Positions 1,074 through 24,955 of a stretch of 64,000 bases of DNA are shown here, one piece after another. The notes below the pieces were generated by a model that did no database searches, was not told the origin of the DNA, and saw nothing but the letters and a program-made list of their open reading frames with translations. Position 1 is the stretch's first letter. Every line of letters starts with the position of its first letter. The position numbers were made by a program, and so were the translations under genes. The stretch spans positions 64,001-128,000 of the forward strand of contig JBHLMN010000016.1 of the NCBI GenBank assembly GCA_048938105.1, in the 5' to 3' direction. This stretch comes from Promethearchaeota archaeon (GTDB lineage: Archaea; Asgardarchaeota; Heimdallarchaeia; Hodarchaeales; Hodarchaeaceae).

Positions 1074-3860
1074 TTATACATCTTTTATGCTTTTGTTATT
1101 ACGTTGATATCCAGACCACATGATGAGGTCAACCGTACCTGTCCCAAGGGGTATTATTTGGCCAATGATAACATTTTCAGTTATTCCACGAAGTTTATCT
1201 CGTTCACCTCGGGCAGCAGAATTCAATAAGTGTTTAACTGTTACCTCAAACGAGGCCCTTGCTAGGACACTTTCTTTCTCACCACTGATACCATGCCGTC
1301 CTATTTGACGTAAATTTCCATCTTGAGTCATAATATCCGCTACTAGCATTATATGGCGGATATCCACATCTAATCCTTGATCTTGTAACACTGCTGTAGC
1401 TTCATCGATTATAGCTTGTCTTGTAGCTTCAATTCCTAGGGTATCACGAATTTCCTGAATATGATTGGTTTTAATCCTTGTGGGATCCACACCAGGTATG
1501 CTTAAAACATCGGGAAGATTACTTCCCGCTGTAAAAAGAACCCACTCATCTAATTCCTGATCTTTTGATATGATGACTCGTGTAATCCCTTTCACCCCTT
1601 TTAATTTAAGATCCCTGATTTTTTCATTCAATTTATAGATGTCATCAATTGTTAGGTCTTTTGAGTCAATGATGATCTCATTATTCTTAATGTATACTTC
1701 CCCCTTTTTTAATCTTGATAGTTTTTCAACGATTAATTCAGCTGTCAAACCTTTATCTTTCATTAAAATGTCGTTTAATGTTACTTTTATTTGCATAAGT
1801 GCAAGATCTACTGTTATATCATCGCTTATTGATTCTATAGTAGATAATTCTATCCTTCGTTGAACTTCTTGAGCTTTTTCTTTTTCTTTTGAATAAGGTT
1901 CTTCAAGATAAACTGTCATAAAAGGAGAAGCAGGATTTTTTCGCGCGTCTAGAATCTCTATTAAGCGGGGTAAACCCAAGGTGACGTTTAATTCAGCAAC
2001 GCCTGCATAATGAAAGGTTTTCAAAGTATTGTGAGTAATTAATCCCTCAAATGTCATGAATGTCTCATATCCTTCTATAGTAAAATCATAAACAAATTCT
2101 GTTGGCGAAGATATTAATTCTAATTTTGTTATCTCGTCCCAGATGGTTCCACTATCATAAGCTTGGTGAAGAATTTGTAATTTCTCTTTCAACATTTCAT
2201 TTTCATCAGCAAACTTATAAAATTCTTCTAAGTATCTCCCAAGCGTTTGACGACCAATCAACTGATTTCTCGTATATTTTCTAATTGTTACACCCAAAGA
2301 AGATTTACTAGATATTCCTGACATCGATCTTAATTCTTTTAATAAATCTCCAAAACCTGGAATCATGTCTATTTTGTCATATGTGTGTTTTTCCATTTTC
2401 ATTTTTTCTTTTTCTTGGTCTACAAGATTGTTTAAGGATATAAGTTTGTGAGGAATGTCTGAACCAATAAATTTTTTAAAAATAGGCGAATATTTTCCAG
2501 GGATCCGAATAGAGAATAAACCTTTATTTGTCCTATGTTTAGATGCAAAAATCCCTAATCTAGATAATAACAGACACACACCATCTAATAATTCTTTAGA
2601 TTTAGAACTTACTCTGATTTGAGATTTCTCAACACTTATACTTCCATCACCATCAAAATAACCTCTTAATAGAGCGCCAATAAAGACTTTAGAAGTATTG
2701 ATACTCCAAAATGGGATATACTTATCTTTTGCTCCTTTTCCACACATCTTATCAAATAATCTACACAACAGAGTTGAATGTATATTTACACTTATACTAG
2801 GACCGTAATTTCCTTCCGATTCAACAGTTCGATAATTTATACCCAACTTATTTGCAAATAAAATAGCTTTCTCCCTGTAGTTTTCATCAACATTTGTTAT
2901 GGCTAAATAAGTTCCAGCATTGGTTCCTTCAGCTAGATAAGCTCCAATAAACCATCCAAAAAGGGGATCTAAAGGAAATTCTTCTGGGATCCTTGTGTGT
3001 CCACTATGTTGCATTTTAGGGTAAATAAAACCTGGTAGAAGTTTATCTCTTGCTCCTTTATCCAAAGCTTTTCGTAAAGCTTCACCTTTAACTGGCACTT
3101 TTGAAAAATCAATATGTTGTAACCAACTTCTACCCTTCAGATCACGCATTGTTGCGATTTGTGTAACTTCTGATCCATACCAAATTTCATTTTTTTCTAA
3201 ATACATATCTACTGGAAGACTTAGGATTGGATTAACTTCAGGTAAAGATTTGACAAGTGGAATACGATGACCAATACTCAGATATCTACCTGCTATTGGC
3301 ACAATTTCATTATCTCTACGAATTACAAATGAATGTGATAATGTTGCTGTTATTTCTCTCCCACTTCTGGTTGTTAGTTTTAGAAGTTGACCATTTGGTT
3401 TATGACGACTGACTTGTAACAATCTTTTCCAATGAATCTTTTCATCAAATCCAAGAGAAGGCACATATATGTTAGAACTTTCAGGGATATCACAGATAAT
3501 TGAGTTTTGATATTCATATGGTGATAATGTTGTAATCAACTCATCTACGAAATCACCTATCTCTATTATTCTTGAAATAGAATTTCTTTTCAAAATAACC
3601 TTTTCGTTCCCTGGGATACTCATTTGGGTTCCAGGTTCTCCTATTGATTGTGCTGCCACTGTTCCAATAGCTTCTCCTGGTTCGACAAGAGATCGTAAAT
3701 ATGCATCTTCAACAGAATCTAGAATTTTATTAACAGTTTGTTTACTTAAATTTGGTAGCTCTGATAGTTTACGAAAAATATCTTCTCGAATGCTTTTAGG
3801 GAAACTATCCTCTCTTTTATTGATTAGCTCAAAAAGCTTGTCATTTGACAGTTTTGGCAT
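1074..3860 (-). CDS. rpo1C: DNA-directed RNA polymerase subunit Rpo1C (A''), intein-containing precursor (928 aa; 397 aa after splicing)
   Basis: GTVAAQSIGEPGTQM / TLKTFHYAGV motif split by a 531-aa insert; C-terminal RASFE...GITENVIIGQ. Confidence 0.97.
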   Translation of the reverse strand: MPKLSNDKLFELINKREDSFPKSIREDIFRKLSELPNLSKQTVNKILDSVEDAYLRSLVEPGEAIGTVAAQSIGEPGTQMSIPGNEKVILKRNSISRIIEIGDFVDELITTLSPYEYQNSIICDIPESSNIYVPSLGFDEKIHWKRLLQVSRHKPNGQLLKLTTRSGREITATLSHSFVIRRDNEIVPIAGRYLSIGHRIPLVKSLPEVNPILSLPVDMYLEKNEIWYGSEVTQIATMRDLKGRSWLQHIDFSKVPVKGEALRKALDKGARDKLLPGFIYPKMQHSGHTRIPEEFPLDPLFGWFIGAYLAEGTNAGTYLAITNVDENYREKAILFANKLGINYRTVESEGNYGPSISVNIHSTLLCRLFDKMCGKGAKDKYIPFWSINTSKVFIGALLRGYFDGDGSISVEKSQIRVSSKSKELLDGVCLLLSRLGIFASKHRTNKGLFSIRIPGKYSPIFKKFIGSDIPHKLISLNNLVDQEKEKMKMEKHTYDKIDMIPGFGDLLKELRSMSGISSKSSLGVTIRKYTRNQLIGRQTLGRYLEEFYKFADENEMLKEKLQILHQAYDSGTIWDEITKLELISSPTEFVYDFTIEGYETFMTFEGLITHNTLKTFHYAGVAELNVTLGLPRLIEILDARKNPASPFMTVYLEEPYSKEKEKAQEVQRRIELSTIESISDDITVDLALMQIKVTLNDILMKDKGLTAELIVEKLSRLKKGEVYIKNNEIIIDSKDLTIDDIYKLNEKIRDLKLKGVKGITRVIISKDQELDEWVLFTAGSNLPDVLSIPGVDPTRIKTNHIQEIRDTLGIEATRQAIIDEATAVLQDQGLDVDIRHIMLVADIMTQDGNLRQIGRHGISGEKESVLARASFEVTVKHLLNSAARGERDKLRGITENVIIGQIIPLGTGTVDLIMWSGYQRNNKSIKDV
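2028..3620 (-). mobile_element. intein with LAGLIDADG homing endonuclease in rpo1C (aa 81-611)
   Basis: Starts SIPGNE (Ser1), block B ITATLSHSF (TxxH), two LAGLIDADG-like helices (FIGAYLAEG, LLRGYFDGDG), ends VYDFTIEGYETF...ITHN, followed by extein Thr+1. Confidence 0.95.
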
Positions 3861-10622: not shown

Positions 10623-12092
10623 ATGAATCAATCGTTAAATATAGACTTAAATCTAAATCAAAATGAAGAAATTATGATAGATTCCTATTCATTTCATTGT
10701 TATATAGCTTCGATAATTAAAATACCACACAAAGAAGAATACGTGTATCAGGTACGATATGATCCTTTAACTTATAATCACTTGAAGGATTTCAGTCATT
10801 ATGAAAAGGAGGTTCATTTCTTTCTTAAAGAATTTGTTTTGCACCAAAATGATTTCTGTACATTTGATCAGCTTTACACTTCCTTATCAAAAGCTACTTA
10901 TAAGGAATTACAAATCCCTAAACAATTTCTAATCCCCGTTATGTTCCGTAAGCTCAATCTTGAAAAAATTGGTCCATTATTAATTGAAGATCAGATTGAC
11001 GAAATATATTTAGATTCGAGTAAGAAGAATCTCTATATAGATCATTCCCGGCATGGGAGGTGTGCTACCTCAATACAGCTTTCGAAGGAAGAAATCGAAT
11101 CTTTTGTTCATCGAATTGCACTGGAAAACGATTTTTCTCTAAATCAAAACAATCCAACAATGAAAGCAGATTTTGTATCTAAATTGTTCCATTCCCGGAT
11201 CACAGTAGATATTCCTCCTCTTATTATCGATGATATTCACATTGATATCAGGAAATTTCATTCAAAGATATTGAGAATTTCAGATCTGATTAAGAATGGA
11301 AGTCTTACCCTAAGTCAAGCAATTTTCTTAGTATATTTAATTCAAAATCAGGTTTCGATTTCAATAATTGGGCCTCCAAATTCAGGGAAAACAACATTGC
11401 AAAATGCTTTGATTGAATATATTCCTCCTCATTTTCGACTTCTATCAGTGGAAGATGTTTTAGAAACCGCTGAAATAAGACGTGGAAACACTGTTAGATT
11501 CCGTTTAGGTTATGATCCGCATGAAAGCATGATTTTTTCAAAATCGCTTGAAGTCCAAAAAATACTACATAGAAGTCCAGATTTTATTAATTTAGGGGAG
11601 CTTTCCACAAAAAATCATTTTACTGCTTTTTTGAATGTTCTATCTGTTGGAATCCCATCAATTCAAACAATACATGGAAGAACTCCAGAATTTCTTTTCG
11701 TACGTTTGAGAGACATATATAACATTCCTCTAGAACTCTTAAAAGCTTCATTTCCTCATATTTTCATCGAGTTGAACGTTTCTTGGATCAAAAATAAGAA
11801 AAAACGTACAATTATGCGGATTGCAGAATTAACAAATGAAGGTGAAATTACTAATTTGTCTAACAAAGCAATCGAATCATTTGTCGCCTATCCTAATACT
11901 GAATCAGGAATTTTCACACTTGCTTATCTGATTAAGAACAATCAGACTAATCTCAATGATTTTATTGTTAATATCCAAAAAACAGCCTTATTATTGTCTG
12001 GAAACTCGTTTCATAAAGAAATTAAACAAGAAGCGGTTGATTTCAATCATCGGAATAAGAATGAAAATAAGATTGTAAAAAATAAAAACTAA
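10623..12092 (+). CDS. type II/IV secretion system ATPase (TadA/CpaF/VirB11 family)
   Basis: Walker A GPPNSGKT, Asp box SVEDVLE, Walker B-like SPDFINLGEL, His-box TIHG, upstream IDIRKF. Confidence 0.88.
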   Translation: MNQSLNIDLNLNQNEEIMIDSYSFHCYIASIIKIPHKEEYVYQVRYDPLTYNHLKDFSHYEKEVHFFLKEFVLHQNDFCTFDQLYTSLSKATYKELQIPKQFLIPVMFRKLNLEKIGPLLIEDQIDEIYLDSSKKNLYIDHSRHGRCATSIQLSKEEIESFVHRIALENDFSLNQNNPTMKADFVSKLFHSRITVDIPPLIIDDIHIDIRKFHSKILRISDLIKNGSLTLSQAIFLVYLIQNQVSISIIGPPNSGKTTLQNALIEYIPPHFRLLSVEDVLETAEIRRGNTVRFRLGYDPHESMIFSKSLEVQKILHRSPDFINLGELSTKNHFTAFLNVLSVGIPSIQTIHGRTPEFLFVRLRDIYNIPLELLKASFPHIFIELNVSWIKNKKKRTIMRIAELTNEGEITNLSNKAIESFVAYPNTESGIFTLAYLIKNNQTNLNDFIVNIQKTALLLSGNSFHKEIKQEAVDFNHRNKNENKIVKNKN

Positions 12093-12258: not shown

Positions 12259-12457
12259 TTGATTCATTTCCATCAGGCTTTAATAATAGGTGAAAAGAAC
12301 GATTTATTCTCTCCAAACATTCTAGAATATCTACAGGAGCTTTCAAAGCAGCTGATTGAATCAATATCATTTCTATTCCCTACATTACTTAGCATTGCAA
12401 TTGTAACAGTAAATCTTTCTTTGATTTCAGGAACACTCGTTTACCTCTTAGATTATA
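12259..12457 (+). pseudogene. 5' half of a pilin-like small membrane protein gene interrupted by the IscB element
   Basis: Hydrophobic ORF ...LSLISGTLVYLLDY runs into GTCAATCACC at 12458; joins in frame to 19287. Confidence 0.75.
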
Positions 12458-12735
12458 GTCAATCACCCCGAGCTCAAACCTCAGGGCTTTTTCGGTGACG
12501 AGAAAGAGTAATTGGTTGATTAGCCACAGAAAAGTTGAAGGAATAGGTAATTATGAAATCAACAGTATCTAAGTTATCAGGAGAGTTCAGGAACGCACCA
12601 AAAGATGCTTCTCTAGTCTCTTGCTCTGCAAATGAGGGGTTAAACAGAGAGGAAACTCTCAGTGCTCCTCATACAGTACTGCCTGATAACCTTGGCGAAG
12701 AGAACCAACTCCGTAATACTACGGAGAGACAGAAC
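12458..12735 (+). ncRNA. IscB omega-RNA scaffold (HEARO-like); guide predicted from the upstream flank, approx. 12438-12457
   Basis: Begins GTCAATCACCCC, pairing with TGGTTGAT (12513-12520); contains blocks typical of iscB leaders (GATGCTTCTCTAGTC, TTAAACAG...CAGTG hairpin, AACCTTGGCGAAGAGA); lies directly upstream of iscB. Confidence 0.85.
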
Positions 12736-13962
12736 ATGAGTGTATCTGTCAATGTCTATGTACTGAGTATGAGAGGGTCACCTCTCATGCCAACCACACC
12801 TCGAAAAGCGCGTCTATTGTTGAAACAAGGAAAAGCATCTGTTGTTCAACGAACACCATTTACAATTCAACTCAAATATGCTACAGGTGAAACTACGCAG
12901 CCCATCACCTTGGGAATTGATGCGGGGTATTCTACCATTGGTTTTTCCGCAATTGCAGCAAAAAAAGAACTTATTGCAGGTGAAGTAGTATTAAGAACAG
13001 ATATCTCAAAAAGATTAGCCCAAAGACGCATGTATCGTAGAAACAGACGTAGTTATCTTTGGTATCGAAAGCCCCGTTTTCTTAACCGTACTCATGCCAA
13101 AAAAGAGGGATGGTTTGCTCCAAGTATTCAACACAAATTCGATTCTCATATTCGATTAGTGAAAAAAATTCAGAAGATTTTATCTATTACAAATATCATT
13201 GTTGAAGTGGCATCATTTGATACTCTAAAGATGCAGAATCCAGAGATAAACGGGATAGAATATCAACAAGGAGAATTACAAGGTTATGAAGTAAGGGAAT
13301 ATCTACTTGTAAAATATGGAAGAAAATGTGTCTATTGTGGAAAATCTGGCATTCCCTTAGAAGTAGAACATATAAAACCGAAATCGAGAGGAGGGTCAAA
13401 TCGTGTTTCAAACTTGGCAATTTCGTGCCAAAAATGCAACCAAAAAAAAGGTGATCAAACTGCTGCTGAATTTGGACATTCTAAAGTGCAAAAACAGGCC
13501 AAGCGACCCTTAAAAGCTCCCACATTCATGAATAATGTTCGTCAAAAAATCGTGGCTAAATTGAACAGTCAATATACTTATGGTTTCATCACAAAGTATA
13601 ATCGAATTAAACTCGGTTTAAACAAGTCTCATATTAATGATGCATATGTCATTGCTGGAGGGAAATTATGTCAACAACGAACTAAACCATTTTATGTTAA
13701 TCAAATCCGACGTAATAATCGTAGTCTACAATTAAATCGGAAAGGATTTAGAGTATCTATCCGAAAGTCTCACTATCCTTTTCAACCCAATGACCTCGTC
13801 AAAGTAAAAACAACCAATTCTCTATATCGAGTTAAAGGAACTCATTGCAAAGGGACACGGATTATGGTACAGTCACTCAATTTAGTTAAGAAAAAGATTA
13901 GTTTAAGTTTCAAGAATATTGAGTTGGTCACCTATGGTAAGGGATTGTCATTTAAATATTAA
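12736..13962 (+). CDS. iscB: RNA-guided endonuclease IscB (408 aa)
   Basis: N-terminal PLMP motif, RuvC-I GIDAG, Arg-rich bridge helix, RuvC-II IVEVASFD, HNH with CVYC/CQKC (EHIKPKSRGGSN...N), RuvC-III SHINDA. The ORF-track start at 12553 extends into the omega-RNA. Confidence 0.95.
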   Translation: MSVSVNVYVLSMRGSPLMPTTPRKARLLLKQGKASVVQRTPFTIQLKYATGETTQPITLGIDAGYSTIGFSAIAAKKELIAGEVVLRTDISKRLAQRRMYRRNRRSYLWYRKPRFLNRTHAKKEGWFAPSIQHKFDSHIRLVKKIQKILSITNIIVEVASFDTLKMQNPEINGIEYQQGELQGYEVREYLLVKYGRKCVYCGKSGIPLEVEHIKPKSRGGSNRVSNLAISCQKCNQKKGDQTAAEFGHSKVQKQAKRPLKAPTFMNNVRQKIVAKLNSQYTYGFITKYNRIKLGLNKSHINDAYVIAGGKLCQQRTKPFYVNQIRRNNRSLQLNRKGFRVSIRKSHYPFQPNDLVKVKTTNSLYRVKGTHCKGTRIMVQSLNLVKKKISLSFKNIELVTYGKGLSFKY

Positions 13963-14199
13963 TTGGTTAATTATGAGTTATACCACCTTTGGCTCTTATA
14001 GAGATCCCATTTCCATTAAGTAATGCCTCTTATTCTACCAATGTAGTCTTAACTTTTGCTTAAAAACCCGAGAAAAACTCCTGGAATGCCCTTTTTTATG
14101 CCCTTATTTTATAGATTTCCCCTCTAGGACTCTCACTGAATTTCCATACGAGAAAAAATGCCTGAACCTTGAATTTCTTATTTAGTGAAAAAGAGTTGC

Positions 14200-14238
14200 T
14201 TCATTGAGGTCGTCAAATTAGTCCATTGACGACATGAA
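14200..14238. repeat. inverted repeat / hairpin TTCAT-tgag-GTCGTCAA...TTGACGAC-ATGAA
   Basis: Perfect 8-bp stem (14209-14216 / 14226-14233) extended by TTCAT/ATGAA. Confidence 0.6.
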
Positions 14239-15085
14239 CACATTATAATTGCTTCCTCACTATTCTACTGTAGAAGAGATGTAATCAACCTTATTGGGCA
14301 TAAAAGTATCTCCCTCCTGAAATAATTGTCATTAAGGAGGAATAGTTAAATTCATTAAGGAAGAACCATCTAATACAATCAGGAAGACAAGTTTTTTCTT
14401 CACACAAAGGCTATTGAAAGAAGAAACTCGCCTCCAAGAATTAAGATAGTAGAGATTGACTCTTCCCAAAGAATTCAATCCTCTTTTATCTTTTTTCTCA
14501 GTTTGTGTAAGCTTCCTTAGATAAAATTAAAAAAGAATTCTTACCATTTTTCTTCTAATCTATGATATCTAGAATAGCCCAAACTCTCTTTCTAACATCT
14601 TTGAAATTTAAGAAAATCAAAATGGATAATGATTTCCGCTGTAAAATCATGAAATATATGGCAAGCTATTCTTTTTATCGATACGTTGAAAAAAGGTTTT
14701 ATAGAATAAATAATAACCCTTACATACTCTAAAATAATGAATAAGCATACCTCGCTAGTTTGAATAATTGTCAAAACGATTTAATTACTCTTAGTATCAC
14801 AAACAACGTTAAACAAGCTAGATTAAGTATCATCGCCTCTCTCGGTTGTGTAAAGAAATCAGAACGAGATGGAAGAATCACATTACATCTTATACTATAT
14901 AATATTTGCATAGCAGAAACAACAGGTAGAGAAACATTTTCAAAATAAGAAATCCCTAAGAATGAAATCGTACTAATACGATATGTCACATATTTAAAAA
15001 TTGATATAGTACTAAGCCCCACACAGTTCAGAATAATGAAAACAAACTAATCATATGATATGTAAAGGCATAGGAGGAGAAATAT

Positions 15086-15586
15086 ATGGTATTAACTTAC
15101 GAACCTGAACTATCCAAAATAAATGACCTCTTAAATTATGGAAGGTTGTATAATAACACGTTAATAGCTATTAATCGTATTATACATGGTCTTGAACTGA
15201 ATGAGAGGCATCAAGATTCTTTGAACTCCATGAAAAATCTTTTTGATGAAGTGATAAGAGGAGAAGGACAAAACATCGAAATTAAATTGAATAGAGCCCC
15301 AAATAATGTTTCCAGCCTCAATGCTTACAGAAGAATGACTTTGTTGAGCTTACGTGATATTCTAAGAGATGTTAAAGAAGAAAATGAAGTTAAAGAATAT
15401 CTCATGGGACTTAGAGATACATTAATCAGTTTTATAAGTAATACATTAGATTTAGAAACAGAAGAAAACATAAATTCGCTAATGAAATTTCTAGGAATTT
15501 CATCAGAAACCTGTCACAAGGAAATTGAGAGACTGAGGATCGAGGAGGTTGAATTGAAGCCTTGGGAGACGAGAGAAGAGATTTAG
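15086..15586 (+). CDS. hypothetical predicted all-helical protein, first gene of the cargo operon
   Basis: 166-aa ORF with strong AGGAGGA RBS; overlaps the next gene. Confidence 0.75.
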   Translation: MVLTYEPELSKINDLLNYGRLYNNTLIAINRIIHGLELNERHQDSLNSMKNLFDEVIRGEGQNIEIKLNRAPNNVSSLNAYRRMTLLSLRDILRDVKEENEVKEYLMGLRDTLISFISNTLDLETEENINSLMKFLGISSETCHKEIERLRIEEVELKPWETREEI

Positions 15587-17169
15587 CTACAATTGAATCT
15601 TGCATTCAACAAATAAATTTCTTTGTGGATGAAATCTATCTACTAGAAAAGGCCTCCTTAATTAATTATCAAAGATTCTATCAGCTTTTAAATAAAATAT
15701 GCAGAATTATCCTTAATCAACTAGAGGACTTGAAAACTGAAAGAGGTGATCTGGAAGAGTTAGAAGAAAATAATCATATTACGAAAGTAAAAAGAACCAT
15801 TATCATTCAAGCAAAAAACCTACTTGAAACTGTTTCACAACTTCAATGGTACCTTAAGCAGCTATCTTTAGGTACAGGGAGAGAAGAAAACATCCCCGTT
15901 GAATTTATTTTTCCTCTAGAGCCTATCATTGAACATTTTATTGAAGAAAATTTGATTTTTCTTATTGCATCCTGGGAACGTAATTATAAGATCGTAGATT
16001 TTTCTAATGTGTTGAGCCGCATTTTTAAGAATGATAAGGTGATTCTAGACGAGATTAATCACTTCAAAGATCATATCATAATTATCAATCTTCCATGTGC
16101 ATGGAAAGAAGCAGCTTTAATGCATCCATTACTTTTTCATGAGATCGGTCATTTATTGATTAATCTTAATCCTCAAGGGTATAAAGAAAATTTCATTATG
16201 TCAATCGATAATAAAAAGATTGAAAGGATTCTAAAAAGAATTCGATCTGATTTTTCCAATAAGAACTCTAAGGTACTGAAAGATCTTCAATATTTCATTA
16301 ATCAAAGTATTTTTCAGGTAGATATCGTAACAACATCATTGAATTGGTATAATGAGATTCTTTGTGATTTTTTTGGCTTTTCATTAATGAATCTTGGATT
16401 TATATTCGCTTTCACATCATTTTTTAGAACATCGGCCAGTTTAACATCGTGTGGACCGACTCATCCCCCAGGATTCTTAAGATTTGGATTACTTTACTAT
16501 AAGTTATCTAAAGATAAAAGGATTCTCGATTTTTTGAAAACTATATCACCTGATGTTTATAATCTTCTTAAAGATTCAGCTACAAGATGGGAATACTATA
16601 AATCAAAATTAACTTATCTTAATCAGGCTTGTGTCGAAGTTTTAGAGAATTATAAAGAACACCTTCTTGACTCAAACTTGCATGAAATGAGAGGTTTGAG
16701 TATTGAGGAATTTATATACAACCATGATAGGTTTATAAAGTATAAAGACAAATTGTTTGAACTTTTACTTAATTTTATACCAATTAACGAAATAATAATA
16801 AGTGAAACTGAATCCTACCAATGTAATCTAGCATTAATTATTAATGTTGGTTGGTTCTTTTATTATAATAAAGAATTTGACTTATTTAAAGAAAAAGCTC
16901 TAGAACATAAAGAAAAACCTGAATCACGTTACTCAGGGTCTTTAGGTCCAGGGATTAGTCAAATTCACAGAGATAAGGAAATTCCAAAGCTTCATGTGGC
17001 TTTTGATATTTCAAACAACGAAAAATTTGAAAATAACTTTTACAAGGAAAGGCCTAGTCCTTTCTCTTTTTTAAATTGCATTATAAACAAATCGATTCAG
17101 CTTTCTTTCATCCAGGAATATCTAAAAGATATTTGGGAGAGAAAACAAGATGTTTCTACCAAGAATTGA
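15562..17169 (+). CDS. HExxH zincin-like protein (putative metallopeptidase)
   Basis: LFHEIGHL, downstream NEILCD (third ligand-like) and THPP, an arrangement resembling gluzincin/M48 peptidases; GAGGAGG RBS. Confidence 0.65.
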   Translation: MGDERRDLATIESCIQQINFFVDEIYLLEKASLINYQRFYQLLNKICRIILNQLEDLKTERGDLEELEENNHITKVKRTIIIQAKNLLETVSQLQWYLKQLSLGTGREENIPVEFIFPLEPIIEHFIEENLIFLIASWERNYKIVDFSNVLSRIFKNDKVILDEINHFKDHIIIINLPCAWKEAALMHPLLFHEIGHLLINLNPQGYKENFIMSIDNKKIERILKRIRSDFSNKNSKVLKDLQYFINQSIFQVDIVTTSLNWYNEILCDFFGFSLMNLGFIFAFTSFFRTSASLTSCGPTHPPGFLRFGLLYYKLSKDKRILDFLKTISPDVYNLLKDSATRWEYYKSKLTYLNQACVEVLENYKEHLLDSNLHEMRGLSIEEFIYNHDRFIKYKDKLFELLLNFIPINEIIISETESYQCNLALIINVGWFFYYNKEFDLFKEKALEHKEKPESRYSGSLGPGISQIHRDKEIPKLHVAFDISNNEKFENNFYKERPSPFSFLNCIINKSIQLSFIQEYLKDIWERKQDVSTKN

Positions 17170-17668
17170 AATAATAAATCGTATTTTTAATGAACAAGAT
17201 TTTAATAAACGAATAATAGTAACACCCTTTTTTGACCCTGATGAGCAAATTGGTGATGGTACTCTTGATCTGAGGTTAGGTTTTTCATTTTTGAAAATGT
17301 CTCGTGAATATATTCCTTATGTTAATGTTTTGGATGAGGATGTATACACTAAAATTGATTCTTCTCATAAAAAGATTCTTTATTATCCTCGTTGGACCAC
17401 AAAAGAAATAACTCTTCATCCTGGTGACTTTTTATTAGGTGCTACTCTTGAATACGTTAAACTTCCAGATGATTTAATGGCACTCATTTCAGGACGTTCC
17501 TCGTGGGCTCGATTAGGAATCGTTATTCAGGCAACTGGAGGTGTTATTCATCCCAATTTTAACGGTACTATAACTTTTGAATTAGCTAATGTTAGTTCCA
17601 TGCCTGTTAACCTCTACCCTGGGATGAGAATTGCACAATTAGTATTTTCAAGTTGTTCCAATGATTAA
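17150..17668 (+). CDS. dcd: dCTP deaminase, trimeric dUTPase fold, with short C-terminus
   Basis: LDLRLG, LGATLEYVKLP, GRSSWARLG, GTITFELAN, LYPGMRIAQLVF. Confidence 0.88.
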   Translation: MFLPRIEIINRIFNEQDFNKRIIVTPFFDPDEQIGDGTLDLRLGFSFLKMSREYIPYVNVLDEDVYTKIDSSHKKILYYPRWTTKEITLHPGDFLLGATLEYVKLPDDLMALISGRSSWARLGIVIQATGGVIHPNFNGTITFELANVSSMPVNLYPGMRIAQLVFSSCSND

Positions 17669-17901
17669 TATGGATTATAATGATATAGACAATCTTTATT
17701 CTTGTGGTATGGATGGTTGAAACTCATTTAATAAAAATAAGTATTAATATCGAATAAATCGATTTTGTCATTTTTTTCTGATAAATATTATCTATTTATT
17801 GTGTAGCTAATACTACATAAAATTGCTAATATTGTAAATAACTTTACAAATAACTATATACCCACGATTTGGAAGGGTGAGGCAAATGTGTTTAAAACTA
17901 A

Positions 17902-19242
17902 ATGATAAAGGATGAAACTGTAAATGGATGCAGGAAAGTGAAGAGAAAATTTCTACTTATTTTCCCAGAATGGCCGCCTGCCATTGGAGGGATGCAAACT
18001 CATGCTATTTGTTTATCTAATTATCTTTTTTCTAATGGTCATAAAATACTTGTTGTTACATACAAACCAAATCATGCACAATATTCAAAACAAGAATATT
18101 TACAATCTGATAAACTCTTTAACTTCCCTGTTATAAGAATTTTATCAAGAATCACTTATTATCAAAACCTGAGAATAATTCAAAAGATTTCAAGAAAATT
18201 CAAACCAGATCTGATTTATTCAAGTAATATTTTTTATGGAATTCTTAAAGATTGGACTGGTAAACCCACAGTATGTCGATCAGTCGGAAATGATATCTTA
18301 AGGCCTTGGATTCCTTATCCTTTTAATTTTGGATCAAGATTATTGTACAACAAGGCCATAGAGGAAATTTTAGTAAAAATCTTTTTTAAATATTTAAGAG
18401 AGTTAGACATATTCCCTTTTTTAAGCTCTATTTTTCGTAAAAGACGATTAAATATTACTATACAATCTGCAAGATCAGCAGATACAATTTTACCTAATAG
18501 TCACTTTACAACGAGAATTCTTGTTGGATTTGGTGTGAATTCAGCAATTATAAAACCTATAATTGGGGGGGTTGATGTTAATTTCTTTAGAAGAGAAAAA
18601 TCAATTGATAAAAGGCCATTACGAAAAAAATTAAATTTACCAGAAGATAAAATTTTATTGTTAACTGTTTGTAGATTAGTCCAAAAGAAGCGAGTAGATC
18701 TTTTGATTAGAACTATTAAAACCGCTATCTCTAAAGATAAAAATTGGCATTTAGTAATTATTGGAAATGGTAAACGACGTAAGAAATTAATAAAATTAAC
18801 CCATGACCTTGAATTAACGGAATTTATAACTTTTATAGGCTCAATACCATATTATTCAATACCACAATATTATTGGACTGCAGATTTGTTTATTCTTGCT
18901 AGTAAAATCTTCTATCAATCTAAGACAAAAACTTATGATGTCGAAACGATGGGTAGGGTATTATGTGAAGCCAATGCAGCAGGAGTTCCAGTACTCGCCT
19001 CAAAAAGTGGTGGTATTCCCTCTATTATAACTAATAAGAAAAATGGTTTGCTTTTTAACACAGATGATCAGACTGTTCTTTGTGAGAAAATTACTTACAT
19101 GCTTAACAATAAAAAAATGCTTGAGGATTTTAGTCGAAATGGATTGTATTATGCTGAAGAGAAATTTGATTGGTCTATAGTGTTTCAAAAACATGAAGAA
19201 ATATTTGAAAATCTGTTAAATGGGAAAAGAACTGGTACCTAA
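17902..19242 (+). CDS. glycosyltransferase family 4 (GT-B)
   Basis: PPAIGGMQT N-terminal loop, VCRLVQKKRVD, ETMGRVLCEANAAGVPV (E-x7-E), SGGIPSII. Confidence 0.92.
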   Translation: MIKDETVNGCRKVKRKFLLIFPEWPPAIGGMQTHAICLSNYLFSNGHKILVVTYKPNHAQYSKQEYLQSDKLFNFPVIRILSRITYYQNLRIIQKISRKFKPDLIYSSNIFYGILKDWTGKPTVCRSVGNDILRPWIPYPFNFGSRLLYNKAIEEILVKIFFKYLRELDIFPFLSSIFRKRRLNITIQSARSADTILPNSHFTTRILVGFGVNSAIIKPIIGGVDVNFFRREKSIDKRPLRKKLNLPEDKILLLTVCRLVQKKRVDLLIRTIKTAISKDKNWHLVIIGNGKRRKKLIKLTHDLELTEFITFIGSIPYYSIPQYYWTADLFILASKIFYQSKTKTYDVETMGRVLCEANAAGVPVLASKSGGIPSIITNKKNGLLFNTDDQTVLCEKITYMLNNKKMLEDFSRNGLYYAEEKFDWSIVFQKHEEIFENLLNGKRTGT

Positions 19243-19286
19243 TGATTATTCAACATATTACTTTCTTTCGGTGAATAAAGATTAGA

Positions 19287-19612
19287 ATGAGGAAAATGGA
19301 AAAATGATGATTCTTAGATCATTTATAATTCTAATACTCTTAATCTCTATTTTTAATCTAAAATTTCCTAGGTCAACGGTGGTTATGGAACCATTTGAGG
19401 GTTTTTTTCCTTTAACTTCATTTATCACATCATATTTATTGTTTATTTTTGCAGTATTATCTCTTATAGTCTTCATTGGAAATTTAGGCCTTTATCTCCT
19501 TACCTCAGATTCAGAACGGATCAAGAACTTGAAAAAAAGCACATTCTGCCTTTTCTGTATTATTTTACCATTAGGTTTTCAATTTCCACATATGCCGATA
19601 TGGAAAATGTGA
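19287..19612 (+). pseudogene. 3' half of the interrupted pilin-like membrane gene (may be expressed from ATG 19304)
   Basis: In-frame (N)EENGKMMILRSFIILILL... continues the 12259 frame; preceded by an in-frame TAG that lies within the insert. Confidence 0.7.
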
Positions 19613-19932: not shown

Positions 19933-22900
19933 ATGAGGAATGATATGAAGATGTGGAAGATTCCTAAGGCAGAATTGTTTCAAAAATTAAAAATGTTTAT
20001 GATTATCTTTCTATTTCTCATTTCATTTGTACTGAACACTCTCAATGCTAGTGCCCCCCTATTCTCTAATTGTATGTCCTCCTTAAATCGAAGTATGCCT
20101 TTAGAAAAGGAGATTGATTCTCAAGAAATTCAGAAAAATCCATCTAATTTAGAAATTAACAATTTAATGGTTAATGAAGAACAAATACAATATTATGTAG
20201 AGCAGAGTACTCAGTTCAATATAAAAAATCATCAAATGAAAGAAATGGCCTCAAATTCGTACACTAATGTTTCTATTAAGTCAAAAGTGATAAATTCATC
20301 ATTTCGGATTTTTTCGAATGGTAATAATGGCAGCAATAGATGGCAAAATGATATTGAACCTGATTATGGGGATGTTAACGCATCTACAATTTTTTCGGAG
20401 AATATCAACTTCTTTCGCTTAAATTTTTCTGAAAATGTTGAGACCCCTGCTTCAGGAATAACTAATACAGATTTTCTTGTTTCATCAAATCCAGACATTT
20501 TTAGTTATCCAACAATTATTTCCTTCGATTTCAGAATCCCATTTTTAACGTCAACTATCATAAATTCATCTCATACTTTGGGTTTAGAATTTAGGTTCAA
20601 CAATGGTTCAATAACCTTCATTTTATCAGATTTTGGGGGGAACCTTGGAGATATTCTTGAAGAAAATGTTACACGACCAAACGGGTCTGATTATCTCTAT
20701 ATCCTATGCAATGAAACACCACCCTTCAGTTGGAGACACATTTCACACAATATTACAAGATTAGTTAGTACCTACTTTACTCCAGAGGAGTACTACAAGT
20801 TTTCCTCTCTTGAAACTCTCTTCTGTTATATGATAACTTTCACCCCAGGTTACAAATTGACTCTAGACATAAACAACTTAGATTATTTTACCTTATTATC
20901 TCCCTGTCCTCCAATTAATTACACAATTGGAGAAACGATGATTTTTACTAGTAATGGTTCATTATCTTATAATTCAATGTTGGGAAACTTCACTTTTATT
21001 GCATATGAGGATTCTTCTTGGATTAATAATACATTAACATATTTAAAGGTAAATATTACACGAATAAAGAGCTTTAAAAGTTTTTCTTTTGCTAAAGATT
21101 GGAATGAAACCAAAGTTCGAATAAATTTGTACGTTGACATCCCTGATATCATTGAAGCTGTAACTTCTAGTTTTATTAACATTATTCTTCCCTCAGATTG
21201 GATTAATATCAATATTATTAATCAAAATATCAACTTTGAATTTACAAATCAAACTAGAATTCTGAATGAATACCTATTCGGAAACTTTTATCGTGCAGAC
21301 GTCTATGGAATACATTGGGGTATTATTGAAGCATGGTCACCAAATTATCTCACTAATATTGTAGTTCCCACTGATGTTAGCAGAAATGATGTTATCAAGG
21401 TTAGAGGTGATTTACATTATCCCTTATTAGGAAATATAAACTTGTATTATTTTAGTGAATCTTTCTTTTTTCACAAAAGTACACTTCCTATGATTAATTC
21501 TACATTTATCTTTCCTGAAATAACAATAACTGATGAATTTCCAACTGGGATCTTACAATTTACTCTCAATTGGTCAAACTCATGGGAGTATGGTATTTAT
21601 GAAAAACTCGTTTATGTTCATGAGGAAGTGAGTTCTTACTCAAACATTCTATTTAAAACATCTCAGAATGTTAATATTTATCGATTCGAACCATTATTAG
21701 TAAATTTAAGTCTAACGAAAAATGGAAACAAATATTTTTCTAATTCAACATTCGTTTTCTTAATCAAAGGAAAAGAATGTCTTTCTTTTTCCCCAACATC
21801 ACACAATGATTTCATTCTCAATGTTTCTCATATTATTTGGGATCCTGGAGACTATACTTTAAGTGTCATTGCATCTGATGGCGATCTATTCTTTGCAAAG
21901 GATGTGATGAATTTGACAGTTAAACCAGCTTCAATTTTTTGGAGTTTTGAAAACTTACAAACAACTTTGTTAAAAAATGAGAGTATTTGTTTTCGACTCT
22001 ATTCTTATATCCATCCTCAAGGAGAAGAATACTTCCAAACCTTATCTGGCCTCAAGATTAGGATTTGGATCAATGATACAGTAATTTCTAATTACGAAAC
22101 AAATTCAAAAGGATTTTCTGATATTGACTTCGATTTTAAATACTCGTCTTCTATGGAATTCCTTCAAGTCGCAGTAGAGGGAATGGTAGAGGGAGAAGTG
22201 TTTAAAATGCAAACACTACTATATTATATCTCAAATGAGACAACCGTAGATGGTGGAGACAGAGCTTATATGCATGAAATAATGAGATCACCTATTAAGG
22301 CAAATGAAACCTTTTTTATTTATTATAACATTGAATACTCAAACAATAATTCTAATTGGTTTGTTCCTATCGAATCATATACTGATTTAGTATTAGCCGC
22401 GTATATTTTACGAGATAATTATGTTATTGGCACCAGTATTGAAAATCACATGTTAATCTGGACACTAGAAGCGAATCAATCTATAAATGATATATTGGTA
22501 ATTGAATTACCAAGCCCATCTGTATTAGTCATAAAGGAAGTGTTATCGAAAAAATTCAGAATTAAATTGGAAGCTTATTCCGAAATAACAGTTAATAATT
22601 ATTCAATTGAAATTGATCTTAAATTCTTAGGATTTCCCTTTACCAATATTTCTCTCTTAGATTCATTGAATCGCGATATAACTCATCTGTTTAAAATAAC
22701 CAGTTCAAGCTCAATTGTTTCGATATATCAACTTAATATAATAAGCGAGCTCAAAATGTCTTATTTTTTGAGAGGAGATCTTCAGGAAATTGAAATTAAA
22801 ATTAGAAACCCTTTTCAGTCATCATATGCTTATAATGAAAGCATTCGGGGTAGTTGGGAAATCAAAACACCAATCAACTATTCTTATGTAGTTTTGTACA

Positions 22901-23490
22901 CAATATGGGATTTAGGATCTTGGGAATGTTATAATACTTCTCTTGAAACCTTTTCAAATGCATCAAGTGTTATTACGGCTTTCCTGCCTCTCCAAAGATG
23001 GAACACTTCAATATCTATTCAATTAAGAATGAAATACTTCAATGATCTAATAATAGCTAGTCCGTTGCAAAATTTCACAATCAGTGACGATTTTGCACCA
23101 GTATTAGATTATTCTATTGAGGCAAAGATTGATGTTATTCGAATACATGCCTTTGTTTACGAACCCGAAAGGGCTTCAGGTATCAAGAATGTCTCTTTAA
23201 CATTGAAAGATCAGAGTAACACTGCTAATTCCATTTCCGTAAATCATTATGTTTTTGACATCCCATTTAAAACTATTAATTCCTATTTTATTATGATAAT
23301 TGTGTTTGATTGGGCTGGAAATGAGAGATCATCTGAATTTATAGATATTAAAGAAATGATTCCAGGTTCTTCTTCTCTATCAAGCTTGATTATGTCTCAA
23401 TTTTTCTTTCCAACACTTTTTTCTATTGGAATAATGGGCGGTATTTTTATTGCTCGAATAATTAGGAAGAGGCGAACTTCAATTCTTTGA
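19933..23490 (+). CDS. large exported, C-terminally membrane-anchored protein (probable glycoprotein)
   Basis: N-terminal signal-like hydrophobic segment, beta-rich body with many N-x-S/T sequons, C-terminal TM helix plus RKRR. Confidence 0.75.
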   Translation: MRNDMKMWKIPKAELFQKLKMFMIIFLFLISFVLNTLNASAPLFSNCMSSLNRSMPLEKEIDSQEIQKNPSNLEINNLMVNEEQIQYYVEQSTQFNIKNHQMKEMASNSYTNVSIKSKVINSSFRIFSNGNNGSNRWQNDIEPDYGDVNASTIFSENINFFRLNFSENVETPASGITNTDFLVSSNPDIFSYPTIISFDFRIPFLTSTIINSSHTLGLEFRFNNGSITFILSDFGGNLGDILEENVTRPNGSDYLYILCNETPPFSWRHISHNITRLVSTYFTPEEYYKFSSLETLFCYMITFTPGYKLTLDINNLDYFTLLSPCPPINYTIGETMIFTSNGSLSYNSMLGNFTFIAYEDSSWINNTLTYLKVNITRIKSFKSFSFAKDWNETKVRINLYVDIPDIIEAVTSSFINIILPSDWININIINQNINFEFTNQTRILNEYLFGNFYRADVYGIHWGIIEAWSPNYLTNIVVPTDVSRNDVIKVRGDLHYPLLGNINLYYFSESFFFHKSTLPMINSTFIFPEITITDEFPTGILQFTLNWSNSWEYGIYEKLVYVHEEVSSYSNILFKTSQNVNIYRFEPLLVNLSLTKNGNKYFSNSTFVFLIKGKECLSFSPTSHNDFILNVSHIIWDPGDYTLSVIASDGDLFFAKDVMNLTVKPASIFWSFENLQTTLLKNESICFRLYSYIHPQGEEYFQTLSGLKIRIWINDTVISNYETNSKGFSDIDFDFKYSSSMEFLQVAVEGMVEGEVFKMQTLLYYISNETTVDGGDRAYMHEIMRSPIKANETFFIYYNIEYSNNNSNWFVPIESYTDLVLAAYILRDNYVIGTSIENHMLIWTLEANQSINDILVIELPSPSVLVIKEVLSKKFRIKLEAYSEITVNNYSIEIDLKFLGFPFTNISLLDSLNRDITHLFKITSSSSIVSIYQLNIISELKMSYFLRGDLQEIEIKIRNPFQSSYAYNESIRGSWEIKTPINYSYVVLYTIWDLGSWECYNTSLETFSNASSVITAFLPLQRWNTSISIQLRMKYFNDLIIASPLQNFTISDDFAPVLDYSIEAKIDVIRIHAFVYEPERASGIKNVSLTLKDQSNTANSISVNHYVFDIPFKTINSYFIMIIVFDWAGNERSSEFIDIKEMIPGSSSLSSLIMSQFFFPTLFSIGIMGGIFIARIIRKRRTSIL

Positions 23491-23500
23491 GCTGAAAACC

Positions 23501-24955
23501 GTGAATCATGATATCTTGATAGAAAAATTAAAGATTTTTATGATAGTCTTAATTTCACTTGTCATACTAATCATTATTGAAAGATTACTTATTTCAAACG
23601 ATTATACAAGTATCCTTCAAAACATTGCACAATCACCTTCTAATATGGCACGATATTTTCCAATTACTATTCTGTTGTACCTTTTAACAAAAGAAATAAT
23701 TTTCTCCTCCAAGCAAAATGATCCTCTGCTGAAGTTTTCAGTGATACAAAAAGGATTAGTTTTTATTCAAAATTTTAACATGTATCTTGCTTTATTCGAA
23801 ACTTTTTCTGTTGGAAAAATTCAGACAAGTGAATTAAAACAATTGAAGCATCTAAAGGCATTCTCATTAGAATTAGATACAAGTAAAGCATGTGCTAGAG
23901 TTTTTCTTTATTCAAAATCTTATAAAGAGTTAAAAAAACGAATTAAGAAATCAATGCCAATTCTAGAGGTTGTCTTACCTGATATAAAATTCATATCCAA
24001 GGATAATATTACTAGATTCTTGGGTGAAAACAAATTGTTAAAGGTTAGAAAAAAATTTCTTTTAGAAGAAAATTCAGAGTTAATTTTACCTAAATCTCTA
24101 AATCTTGATACCAAACTTTCTCCCACCGTTTCTAGAATGATTCTAGCTTGCATTTTTCCAGAAGAAATGAGTATTGAAGAAAGCACTGATGAAAAGAAAA
24201 TGGTACAATGTTACTTATTTCATTCTTACAGCACAAATTCCTTCTTTAAATATATGAATAATATGCTCTTCAATACTCCGAAAAAAAAAGGGGATTATTT
24301 TTGGGATATTCGTGAACTACAGAGAATGAGATTAAAATATCAGACAGAAGAAATATCAAAGATTAATCTTCAAAAAGGGCTCCATCATTTTAAAGAAGGT
24401 TTATCTATGGTCTTATCAGAACTAAAACAAGTAATTATACAAGAACAGCAAATTAATTACTCCCCTATTAAATTATCAAGTGAATTAAAATCAAAAAATC
24501 TTTTGAGTTCAGGAAAAACTATTAAATCCCTTGAAATGAATCAGATCTGTTCTGAATTATGTAACATTCCAGGAAATATTAGCTTTTTACAAGAAGAAAA
24601 GGAAAGGAAATGTCAACAAAGAGTAAGTTTTTGTCGAAAACTATTGACAAATGACAATTTCTCTTCGATATTAGAGATCATTTTAGATCAGAAGTATGAA
24701 AAAGATCAAATTCGTCTTTTTACAGAATTAAAAAGTCATTTTTCTCATCAACAACTTATTTGTGTTTTAGCTCATCTATCTCAATCAAATTCCTTAGAAA
24801 TTCCTTATCATAAGATCATCAATATGATCTATATCCTTTTGAAATTAAATTACAAGGCACAAGGAAGTCTTAATGCAAACAAAAGACATCAATCTTCAAA
24901 TTTTTTTAAGGATGAAAAATTCAAACAGATTTCTTTATCTTTGGCAAAAAAATAA
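23501..24955 (+). CDS. hypothetical membrane-anchored protein
   Basis: 484-aa ORF with two N-terminal hydrophobic segments, 10 nt after the previous gene. Confidence 0.65.
   Translation: MNHDILIEKLKIFMIVLISLVILIIIERLLISNDYTSILQNIAQSPSNMARYFPITILLYLLTKEIIFSSKQNDPLLKFSVIQKGLVFIQNFNMYLALFETFSVGKIQTSELKQLKHLKAFSLELDTSKACARVFLYSKSYKELKKRIKKSMPILEVVLPDIKFISKDNITRFLGENKLLKVRKKFLLEENSELILPKSLNLDTKLSPTVSRMILACIFPEEMSIEESTDEKKMVQCYLFHSYSTNSFFKYMNNMLFNTPKKKGDYFWDIRELQRMRLKYQTEEISKINLQKGLHHFKEGLSMVLSELKQVIIQEQQINYSPIKLSSELKSKNLLSSGKTIKSLEMNQICSELCNIPGNISFLQEEKERKCQQRVSFCRKLLTNDNFSSILEIILDQKYEKDQIRLFTELKSHFSHQQLICVLAHLSQSNSLEIPYHKIINMIYILLKLNYKAQGSLNANKRHQSSNFFKDEKFKQISLSLAKK

Follow-up and report, generated by a model that had tools for sequence, protein, structure and literature searches.

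A module of three overlapping genes, here called A, B and C, was analysed in a 64,000-nucleotide (nt) stretch of the genome of a Promethearchaeota archaeon (contig JBHLMN010000016.1). This whole stretch is referred to as the window and all coordinates are positions in it; the host genome is denoted G000, and proteins B and C are P0002 and P0003. Gene C encodes a deoxycytidine triphosphate (dCTP) deaminase core of the Dcd fold that lacks the C-terminal lid arm of its family, and an arm-like segment lies inside the preceding protein B, which resembles a zinc peptidase. This combination of an armless C with an arm-like segment in B is the most unusual feature of the module. The genes were carried into this genome on an insertion and recur in other archaea and on bacterial plasmids. 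The explanation that we favour, with confidence that is about evenly balanced, is that A, B and C are a mobile, cross-domain deaminase complex, whose likeliest role is to attack the nucleotide pool conditionally during genetic conflict. The features of the module are:

15086..15586, forward strand: gene A, 166 amino acids (aa), ATG start, without a family match
15562..17169, forward strand: gene B, 535 aa, TTG start, gluzincin-like protein
16138..16152, forward strand: HEIGH of B (H193, E194, H197), invariant in alignments A3 and A4
16354..16368, forward strand: E265...D269 of B, on the long helix following the HExxH helix, invariant in A3 and A4
16459..16470, forward strand: THPP of B (H301, P302), followed by R307; P302 and R307 invariant, H301 nearly invariant
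16906..17055, forward strand: arm-like insert of B, residues about 449-498, resembling the Dcd C-terminal lid arm; SRYSGSLGPGISQIHRDKEIPKL
17150..17668, forward strand: gene C, 172 aa, ATG start, core of a Dcd-fold dCTP deaminase

The three open reading frames (ORFs) are co-directional, with A and B sharing 25 nt (15562-15586) and B and C sharing 20 nt (17150-17169). A purine-rich box lies ahead of each start: AGGAGGAG before the ATG of A at 15086, GAGGAGGT about 12 nt ahead of the TTG of B at 15562, and GGGAGAG 8 nt ahead of the ATG of C at 17150. A first-pass annotation of this DNA had described the same co-orientation, overlaps and purine-rich ribosome-binding sites, all of which were recovered. 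The long TTG start of B is considered real because the first 21 residues of the protein are kept in a 50 %-identical homologue, P0005. Protein A had no match in Pfam, NCBIfam or PHROG. Its similarities to the PADLOC models CARF3 and CasR (about 15 bits, E 0.002-0.004) were rejected as chance matches of a short sequence.

The catalytic residues of C are intact (S117/S118, R121 and E144), and we take its Ser, Arg and Glu to correspond to S111, R115 and E138 of E. coli Dcd. They were invariant in a 41-sequence alignment, with the Glu found in 102 of 102 sequences. C matched PF22769 with an E value of 4e-34 (118.3 bits, curated cut-off 27) and TIGR02274 with 132.6 bits (curated cut-off 92.8), which bears out the earlier identification of the last gene as a dCTP deaminase of the trimeric dUTPase fold. 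Its closest solved relatives were the B. halodurans and M. tuberculosis enzymes (phmmer E 3e-23 to 1e-17 against solved Dcds). Fold, family and the Ser/Arg/Glu set are therefore shared with Dcd and bifunctional Dcd-dUTPase enzymes of known structure (PDB 4xjc from B. halodurans, 2qlp and 2qxx from M. tuberculosis, 1xs1 from E. coli and 1ogh from M. jannaschii).

Two further positions set C apart. The module deaminases share an invariant Trp in GRSSW(A/G)R, and the Asp of motif III is His in C. The motif-III position was G, H, N, S or Q in all 17 module rows of the alignment (16 distinct sequences, as P0100 duplicates the G085 gene) and Asp in 44 of 85 other Dcds. In bifunctional Dcd-dUTPases, unlike C, this Asp is the base for hydrolysis of deoxyuridine triphosphate (dUTP). 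Loss of the Asp from the module rows argues that the product of C is probably dUTP rather than deoxyuridine monophosphate (dUMP).

C is the second dcd of its genome, as G000 also has a 191-aa dcd on contig 6, together with a dUTPase. A quick maximum-likelihood tree search, with support from the Shimodaira-Hasegawa-like approximate likelihood ratio test (SH-aLRT) only, clustered C with the module deaminases and placed the genome's own dcd inside a strongly supported clade of ordinary Dcds. By sequence, then, C is a Dcd-fold dCTP deaminase other than the housekeeping dcd of this genome. The concern that it might be the genome's only, vertically inherited dcd does not hold, the genome having its own dcd and C having arrived by insertion. 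In comparison with housekeeping Dcds, C is without an arm in cis, has His for the motif-III Asp, carries the invariant Trp, has a zincin-like protein as its constant partner, separate or fused, and is mobile.

The arm of Dcd enzymes folds over the nucleotide, as in the E. coli and M. jannaschii structures. C ends six residues past the core and its 77 %-identical relative P0006 ends 11 past it, whereas all other aligned Dcds have 35-58 more C-terminal residues with a KY...GP..S+...D motif. No remnant of an arm was found downstream of C in any frame. A profile built from 100 Dcd arms, with this lineage left out, matched B at residues 451-478 (E 1.1e-8) and had no other match when the whole window was translated in six frames. 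In a set of about 180 B-family proteins, the other matches to the arm profile were the true C-termini of fusion proteins and a truncated B/DCD remnant ORF in G160 (L045). The insert of B, SRYSGSLGPGISQIHRDKEIPKL, was compared with SKYYGELGPGYSKIFEDPEIIKL in the arm of the G085 deaminase. An arm-like insert of about 50 residues is common to B, P0005 and the fragment P0104 and is absent from the G085 homologue P0101; B homologues with arm-bearing deaminase partners are without it. The co-location of P0005 and P0006 was deduced from one shared figure (5540) for their longest contigs. Because the arm is gone from C, has left no remnant and has its only counterpart inside B, the sequences indicate that it was relocated from C to a flexible loop of B, in this lineage only. 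The insert was modelled as disordered, with an AlphaFold2 (AF2) predicted local distance difference test (pLDDT) score below 50 for residues 456-495, just ahead of the last helix of B.

Trimeric dUTPases lend the equivalent arm between subunits, and its removal cuts kcat about 720-fold in human dUTPase (PMC4827122). By analogy, B may complete the active site of C in trans. The likeness to dUTPases with a swapped C-terminal arm is that an arm from another polypeptide would complete the site; the difference is that the donor would be a different protein and not a sister subunit. To our knowledge, there is no described precedent in the dUTPase superfamily for an arm donated by a different protein. 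Prediction of a complex of three copies of C with residues 445-500 of B gave 0.01 against a mark of 0.32, a value that counts neither way on binding. Irrespective of what the module does in the cell, the relocated lid leads to a falsifiable prediction, namely that C is inactive alone and active with B, dependent on B residues 449-498. Transfer of the lid would be a naturally occurring shift of an active-site element to a partner protein, and would provide a handle on the control of C by B across the family.

Protein B carries the motifs HEIGH (193-197), NEILCD (with E265 and D269) and THPP (300-303). The first-pass annotation had called the product of the middle gene zincin-like from HEIGH...EILCD...THPP, and conservation supports this, the motifs being near-invariant across 40-53 relatives. 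Invariant residues over these family members were H193, E194, H197, E265, D269, P302, R307 and N428, and HExxH and E...D were retained by 124 of 126 full-length representatives. The third residue to bind the metal would be E265. The family comprised 176 representative clusters in an exhaustive profile-free search, mostly of 450-500 aa and 20-28 % identical, with no name on any of the ten clusters looked up. An ordinary homologue search with P0002 or alignment A3 returned only P0002 itself and P0005. B had no model match in Pfam (E <= 1), NCBIfam, PADLOC or PHROG, and thus none to M48 or to U49, the family of the Lit peptidase (PF10463), which is a precedent for a peptidase in defence.

The AF2 models of B were confident, with a pLDDT of 84.6 for the whole protein and 89.6 for the core (residues 105-450). 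Residues 1-104 form an N-terminal bundle of three helices, which is followed by a zincin-like core and a C-terminal part that is again helical. The core has a small beta-sheet, the HExxH helix (185-202) and a long helix bearing E265 (248-276), which is the gluzincin layout. A search with the whole model was dominated by the N-terminal helical bundle, and the core was searched separately. Exhaustive structural alignment of the core (VIA-align) gave ZMPSTE24 at Z 7.2 (169 residues, root-mean-square deviation 8.3) and Ste24 at 7.0, followed by neprilysin (5.5) and BepA (5.3), with PepO, Zmp1 and other zinc peptidases also at the top; M13 and M48 members, at Z 5.0-5.5, filled nine of the top 15 rows. 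The M48 gluzincins Ste24/ZMPSTE24, HtpX and BepA thus resemble B in having HExxH followed by a Glu on a helix and include its best structural matches, and differ from it in that B is soluble and has an extra three-helix bundle, a helical C-terminal domain, HPPxxxR and a partnership with Dcd. Weak matches to Pfam Peptidase_M48 were found in six of 53 B relatives (E >= 0.025), with none for P0002. The nearest named Atlas clusters carry M48 or U49, with a language-model score of 0.78 that is below the trust level and serves as a lead only. From the model, B is read as a gluzincin-type zinc hydrolase that is nearest M48 and not assignable to the M48 family. Both enzymes are likely active, since Ser/Arg/Glu are invariant in C, and B keeps HExxH and E...D and has a gluzincin-like core.

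The association of the three genes is not confined to this genome. The B family was detected by profile search in 26 of 399 genomes of the phylum, and a DCD gene lay directly downstream of B, often with a 4-nt overlap, in 14 archaeal loci fetched from several families. Small genes of the size of A are found upstream of B in G085, G133, G148 and G177. Fusions occur on both sides of B. Members of genus g28 have a B of 601-605 aa whose extra 160 N-terminal residues match free A (E 0.001), and two metagenomic proteins, P0118 and P0156, are natural fusions of B with DCD. In P0118 the zincin motif reads HEIGR, HPP is lost and the fused deaminase retains the motif-III Asp; its B part may be catalytically dead and serve as a scaffold only.

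Bacterial copies were reached through a search with the deaminase. A conjugative plasmid of Bradyrhizobium has a trio of 145, 462 and 237 aa (B profile E 2e-45), and P1-like plasmids of E. coli and Salmonella have one of 101, 357 and 205 aa (B profile E 1e-14). A tblastn search with P0002 of plasmid and phage collections gave no match, and neither P0002 as query in genome contigs nor alignment A1 in viral contigs returned related loci. The genes do therefore co-occur elsewhere, in archaeal loci, on bacterial plasmids and as fusions. The fusions on both sides and the tight coupling of the genes make a good case that the three proteins function jointly, and the simplest form of this would be a physical complex.

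Mobility was established from the boundaries of the DNA that carries the module. The features of this insertion, other than the module itself, are:

12458..19286, no strand: insertion carrying the module, 6,829 bp, consisting of an IscB element and its cargo
12458..12709, forward strand: HEARO RNA (IscB omega-RNA; Rfam RF02033, 115.7 bits, gathering 83, E 4e-24, full model length)
12553..13962, forward strand: IscB-type gene with RRXRR (PF14239, 4.8e-64) and HNH (PF01844, 2e-13)
17902..19242, forward strand: glycosyltransferase of the GT4 type (PF00534, 3.2e-38), co-cargo of the insertion

The insertion splits a small host gene into halves at 12259-12457 and 19287-19612. The flanks 12457/19287 directly abut in five same-genus loci. 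Base-to-base comparison of the empty site in four different genomes (loci L060, L061, L063 and L065) gave abutting positions 3300/3301, 879/878, 1115/1114 and 1026/1025, respectively. The start of the HEARO RNA is the exact left edge of the insertion. These precise empty sites in relatives, and HEARO and IscB at the start of the insert, confirm that the module lies inside a mobile insert as first proposed. B is missing from 20 same-genus genomes, and 12 of these 20 sister genomes carry only the housekeeping dcd. The IscB gene is single copy, no second copy having been found in G000, and no transposase gene was seen within the insertion. HEARO RNA at the element edge and an RRXRR-HNH IscB gene are as in other IscB/OMEGA (HEARO) elements, from which this one differs in its cargo of about 5.3 kb, in order about 1.1 kb without convincing genes, A-B-C and the glycosyltransferase. 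The locus thus documents an IscB (OMEGA) element with several kilobases of cargo.

A contig from run X2, of a related strain (17 differences in 760 nt), matched the right flank from 19287 on, with leftward sequence unlike the insertion, which would fit an unoccupied site in the same sediment community. The locus of the interrupted gene (10623-12092 and 19933-24955) encodes a secretion ATPase of the T2SSE/VirB11 type and large proteins (1185 and 484 aa) without annotation, and is kept in 18 of 20 same-genus genomes.

Links to defence were found beside some of the related copies. Next to the trio of G085 (L008, G085:C63, 543-7684) are hsdS and hsdR of a type I restriction-modification (R-M) system, a YgjP-like metallopeptidase and a Cdc6/Orc-like ATPase, and a DNA methylase adjoins the copy of G133. 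In family f20 any dcd is present in only four of 135 genomes, and three of those four are module copies. Distant A-like/B-like pairs linked to Argonaute were found in two divergent operons, L053 (G227:C3, 3906-12141) and L054 (G107:C78, 4136-12359). In both, a Cas4-like nuclease is followed in order by a class II Argonaute, proteins of 135-141 aa and 382-383 aa (the latter with HExGH) and one of about 1000 aa that has no annotation. The Argonaute in G227 matched PADLOC with E 5e-229, and the HExGH proteins matched the B profile with E 8e-17 and 2e-13. A zincin of the B family may thus be an undescribed Argonaute accessory.

On the explanation that we favour, C, the Dcd-fold deaminase, would work in a complex with B, the gluzincin-type zinc hydrolase, and the small partner A. 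C alone would be weak or inactive, and would convert dCTP to dUTP only once B docks and lends its arm, while A and the peptidase activity of B would set the on/off state. The role could be defence, either antiviral or by abortive infection, or else addiction of the element that carries the module. A conflict role is favoured because the carriers are an IscB element, conjugative plasmids and phage-plasmids and the spread across both domains is patchy, and because of the R-M system in G085, the methylase in G133, the dcd pattern of f20 and the Argonaute-operon pairs. A defence role of the trio is plausible, and the antiviral action and peptidase gating proposed in the first-pass annotation are hypothetical.

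The stricter version, an immune or abortive-infection system common to both domains, seems to us a minority possibility. In it, a peptidase formed by A and B, a distant form of which is found in the Argonaute operons, would sense infection and switch C on, with the lid lent in trans, and a flood of dUTP and loss of dCTP would follow. If the module is defensive, it would represent a second, unrelated enzyme fold for nucleotide-depletion immunity, with the same system in Asgard-type archaea and on bacterial plasmids, and the immune reading would imply control through a split enzyme, for which the dUTPase superfamily has no described example. The homologues on E. coli phage-plasmids make the family testable in a standard laboratory host.

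The defensive deaminase of Tal et al. and AvcD of the AvcID system reportedly have the zinc-dependent cytidine-deaminase fold, accompanied by a kinase-like domain or an RNA antitoxin. In contrast, C has a trimeric dUTPase-like fold, the partners A and B and no PADLOC match. What it would share with them is the proposed removal of deoxycytidine nucleotides to starve a replicating virus (bioRxiv 10.1101/2021.04.26.441389; PMC10511110). As an attack on replication, dCTP deamination is already known, unlike the fold, the partners and, most of all, the relocated lid. No description of the trio was found in literature on dCTP deaminase with defence, Asgard, zincin or metalloprotease, nor in the databases searched. 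The first-pass annotation did not recognise the system as one already described, in agreement with the lack of a model for it in PADLOC 2.0, Pfam and NCBIfam.

Several observations weigh against a conflict role for an active peptidase-deaminase complex. None of the 5027 PADLOC models matched C at E <= 1, nor P0100 or P0118, and there was no accepted PADLOC match for A or B. B resembles peptidases in structure only modestly (Z 5-7), and neither the whole B model nor its core had a Foldseek match in PDB at E <= 0.001. The degenerate HEIGR of the fusion P0118 indicates that catalysis by B is not always needed. The B-DCD pair is fixed in families f13 and f14 (five of five and five of six genomes, respectively), where its neighbours are housekeeping genes, among them ribosomal protein L10e (convergent), DRG GTPase and phosphoenolpyruvate (PEP) synthase, in the loci L039-L043 (G115, G117-G120) and L046, L047 and L049-L051 (G110-G114). 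The G177 copy also lies among housekeeping genes. In five closely checked module genomes, including G115 and G113, no dCTP deaminase other than the module copy is present, as would suit a metabolic role. The defence setting suggested by the first-pass annotation therefore holds in part: the surroundings are mobile or defence-adjacent here, in G085 and on plasmids, and housekeeping in two archaeal families. In f13, B measures only 372-381 aa and has no A gene with it.

The alternative that fares best is that the trio is a regulated housekeeping enzyme. B, with A, would be a chaperone, assembly factor or allosteric regulator of C for synthesis of dUMP and deoxythymidine triphosphate (dTTP), and the copy analysed here would have hitch-hiked on the IscB element. 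The module deaminase is the only TIGR02274-type gene in G085, G110-G115, G117, G118, G120, G133, G148, G158 and G177, and the other dUTPase-fold gene of the five closely checked genomes is a dUTPase; synteny with rpl10e and other core genes is kept in f13 and f14. However, G000 had its own dcd, as do 12 of 20 members of the genus, and gained the module by insertion, and the trio resides on plasmids and phage-plasmids of bacteria with a chromosomal dcd. The enzyme is also dispensable. The distribution of dcd in the phylum is patchy, with presence in 112 of 399 genomes, absence from 287 and only 4 of 135 genomes positive in the largest family, so that a different source of dUMP has to serve most members. 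A mere chaperone would not be expected to have a peptidase active site with such strong conservation. A housekeeping role is considered unlikely.

It is quite unlikely that the trio is a tool of its mobile element, shifting the pool from dCTP to dUTP and dTTP in favour of an AT-rich element or to counter host defence. This is the usual reading of viral Dcd, and Dcd is common in viruses (phrog_1663 against C, E 1.6e-34). The carriers, an IscB element, conjugative plasmids and P1-like phage-plasmids, agree with such a role, as does the AT-rich window (about 30 % guanine plus cytosine, GC). Against this, B as query gave no relative in viral contig or phage collections, and the conserved peptidase and A partners as well as the chromosome-fixed copies would be left unexplained.

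An addiction module resembling a toxin-antitoxin pair is decidedly unlikely. C would be the toxin, through dCTP depletion and uracil loading, and A and/or B would neutralise it, with B degrading A or being held by A. The operon is compact, translationally coupled and located on mobile elements, a HigA/RelE pair adjoins the trio on the E. coli plasmid, and AvcID provides a precedent for a deaminase toxin (PMC10511110). Nevertheless, the natural fusion of B with C and with A, and a lid lent by B, speak for activation of C and not for its neutralisation, and addiction modules are not typically fixed in core regions, as this one is in two archaeal families. Finally, that C, which lacks an element found in the Dcds examined other than C and P0006, is an inactive remnant of decaying cargo and the arm-like insert of B a functionless recombination scar is highly improbable, since the arrangement is kept in P0002/P0003, P0005/P0006 and P0104 (50-77 % identity) with open frames and intact catalytic residues, and the arm segment is at least as conserved as the remainder of B.

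The glycosyltransferase of the insertion is outside the conserved unit, as none adjoins the module in the other loci. The region of about 1.1 kb between IscB and A (13963-15085) contained no convincing gene, only short overlapping ORFs on both strands, and gave no match in Rfam. Its function may be regulatory, or it may be what is left of decayed sequence. The host genome is 5.85 Mb in size with about 32 % GC, and the window encodes a split RNA polymerase A' subunit, an archaeal feature. A weak profilin-like match, which none of 14 control genomes gave, agrees with an Asgard host without proving it. None of the listed sequencing runs that contain this stretch is registered as RNA. Identical pieces of the module were present in contigs of two studies, one of sediment and one of mangrove.

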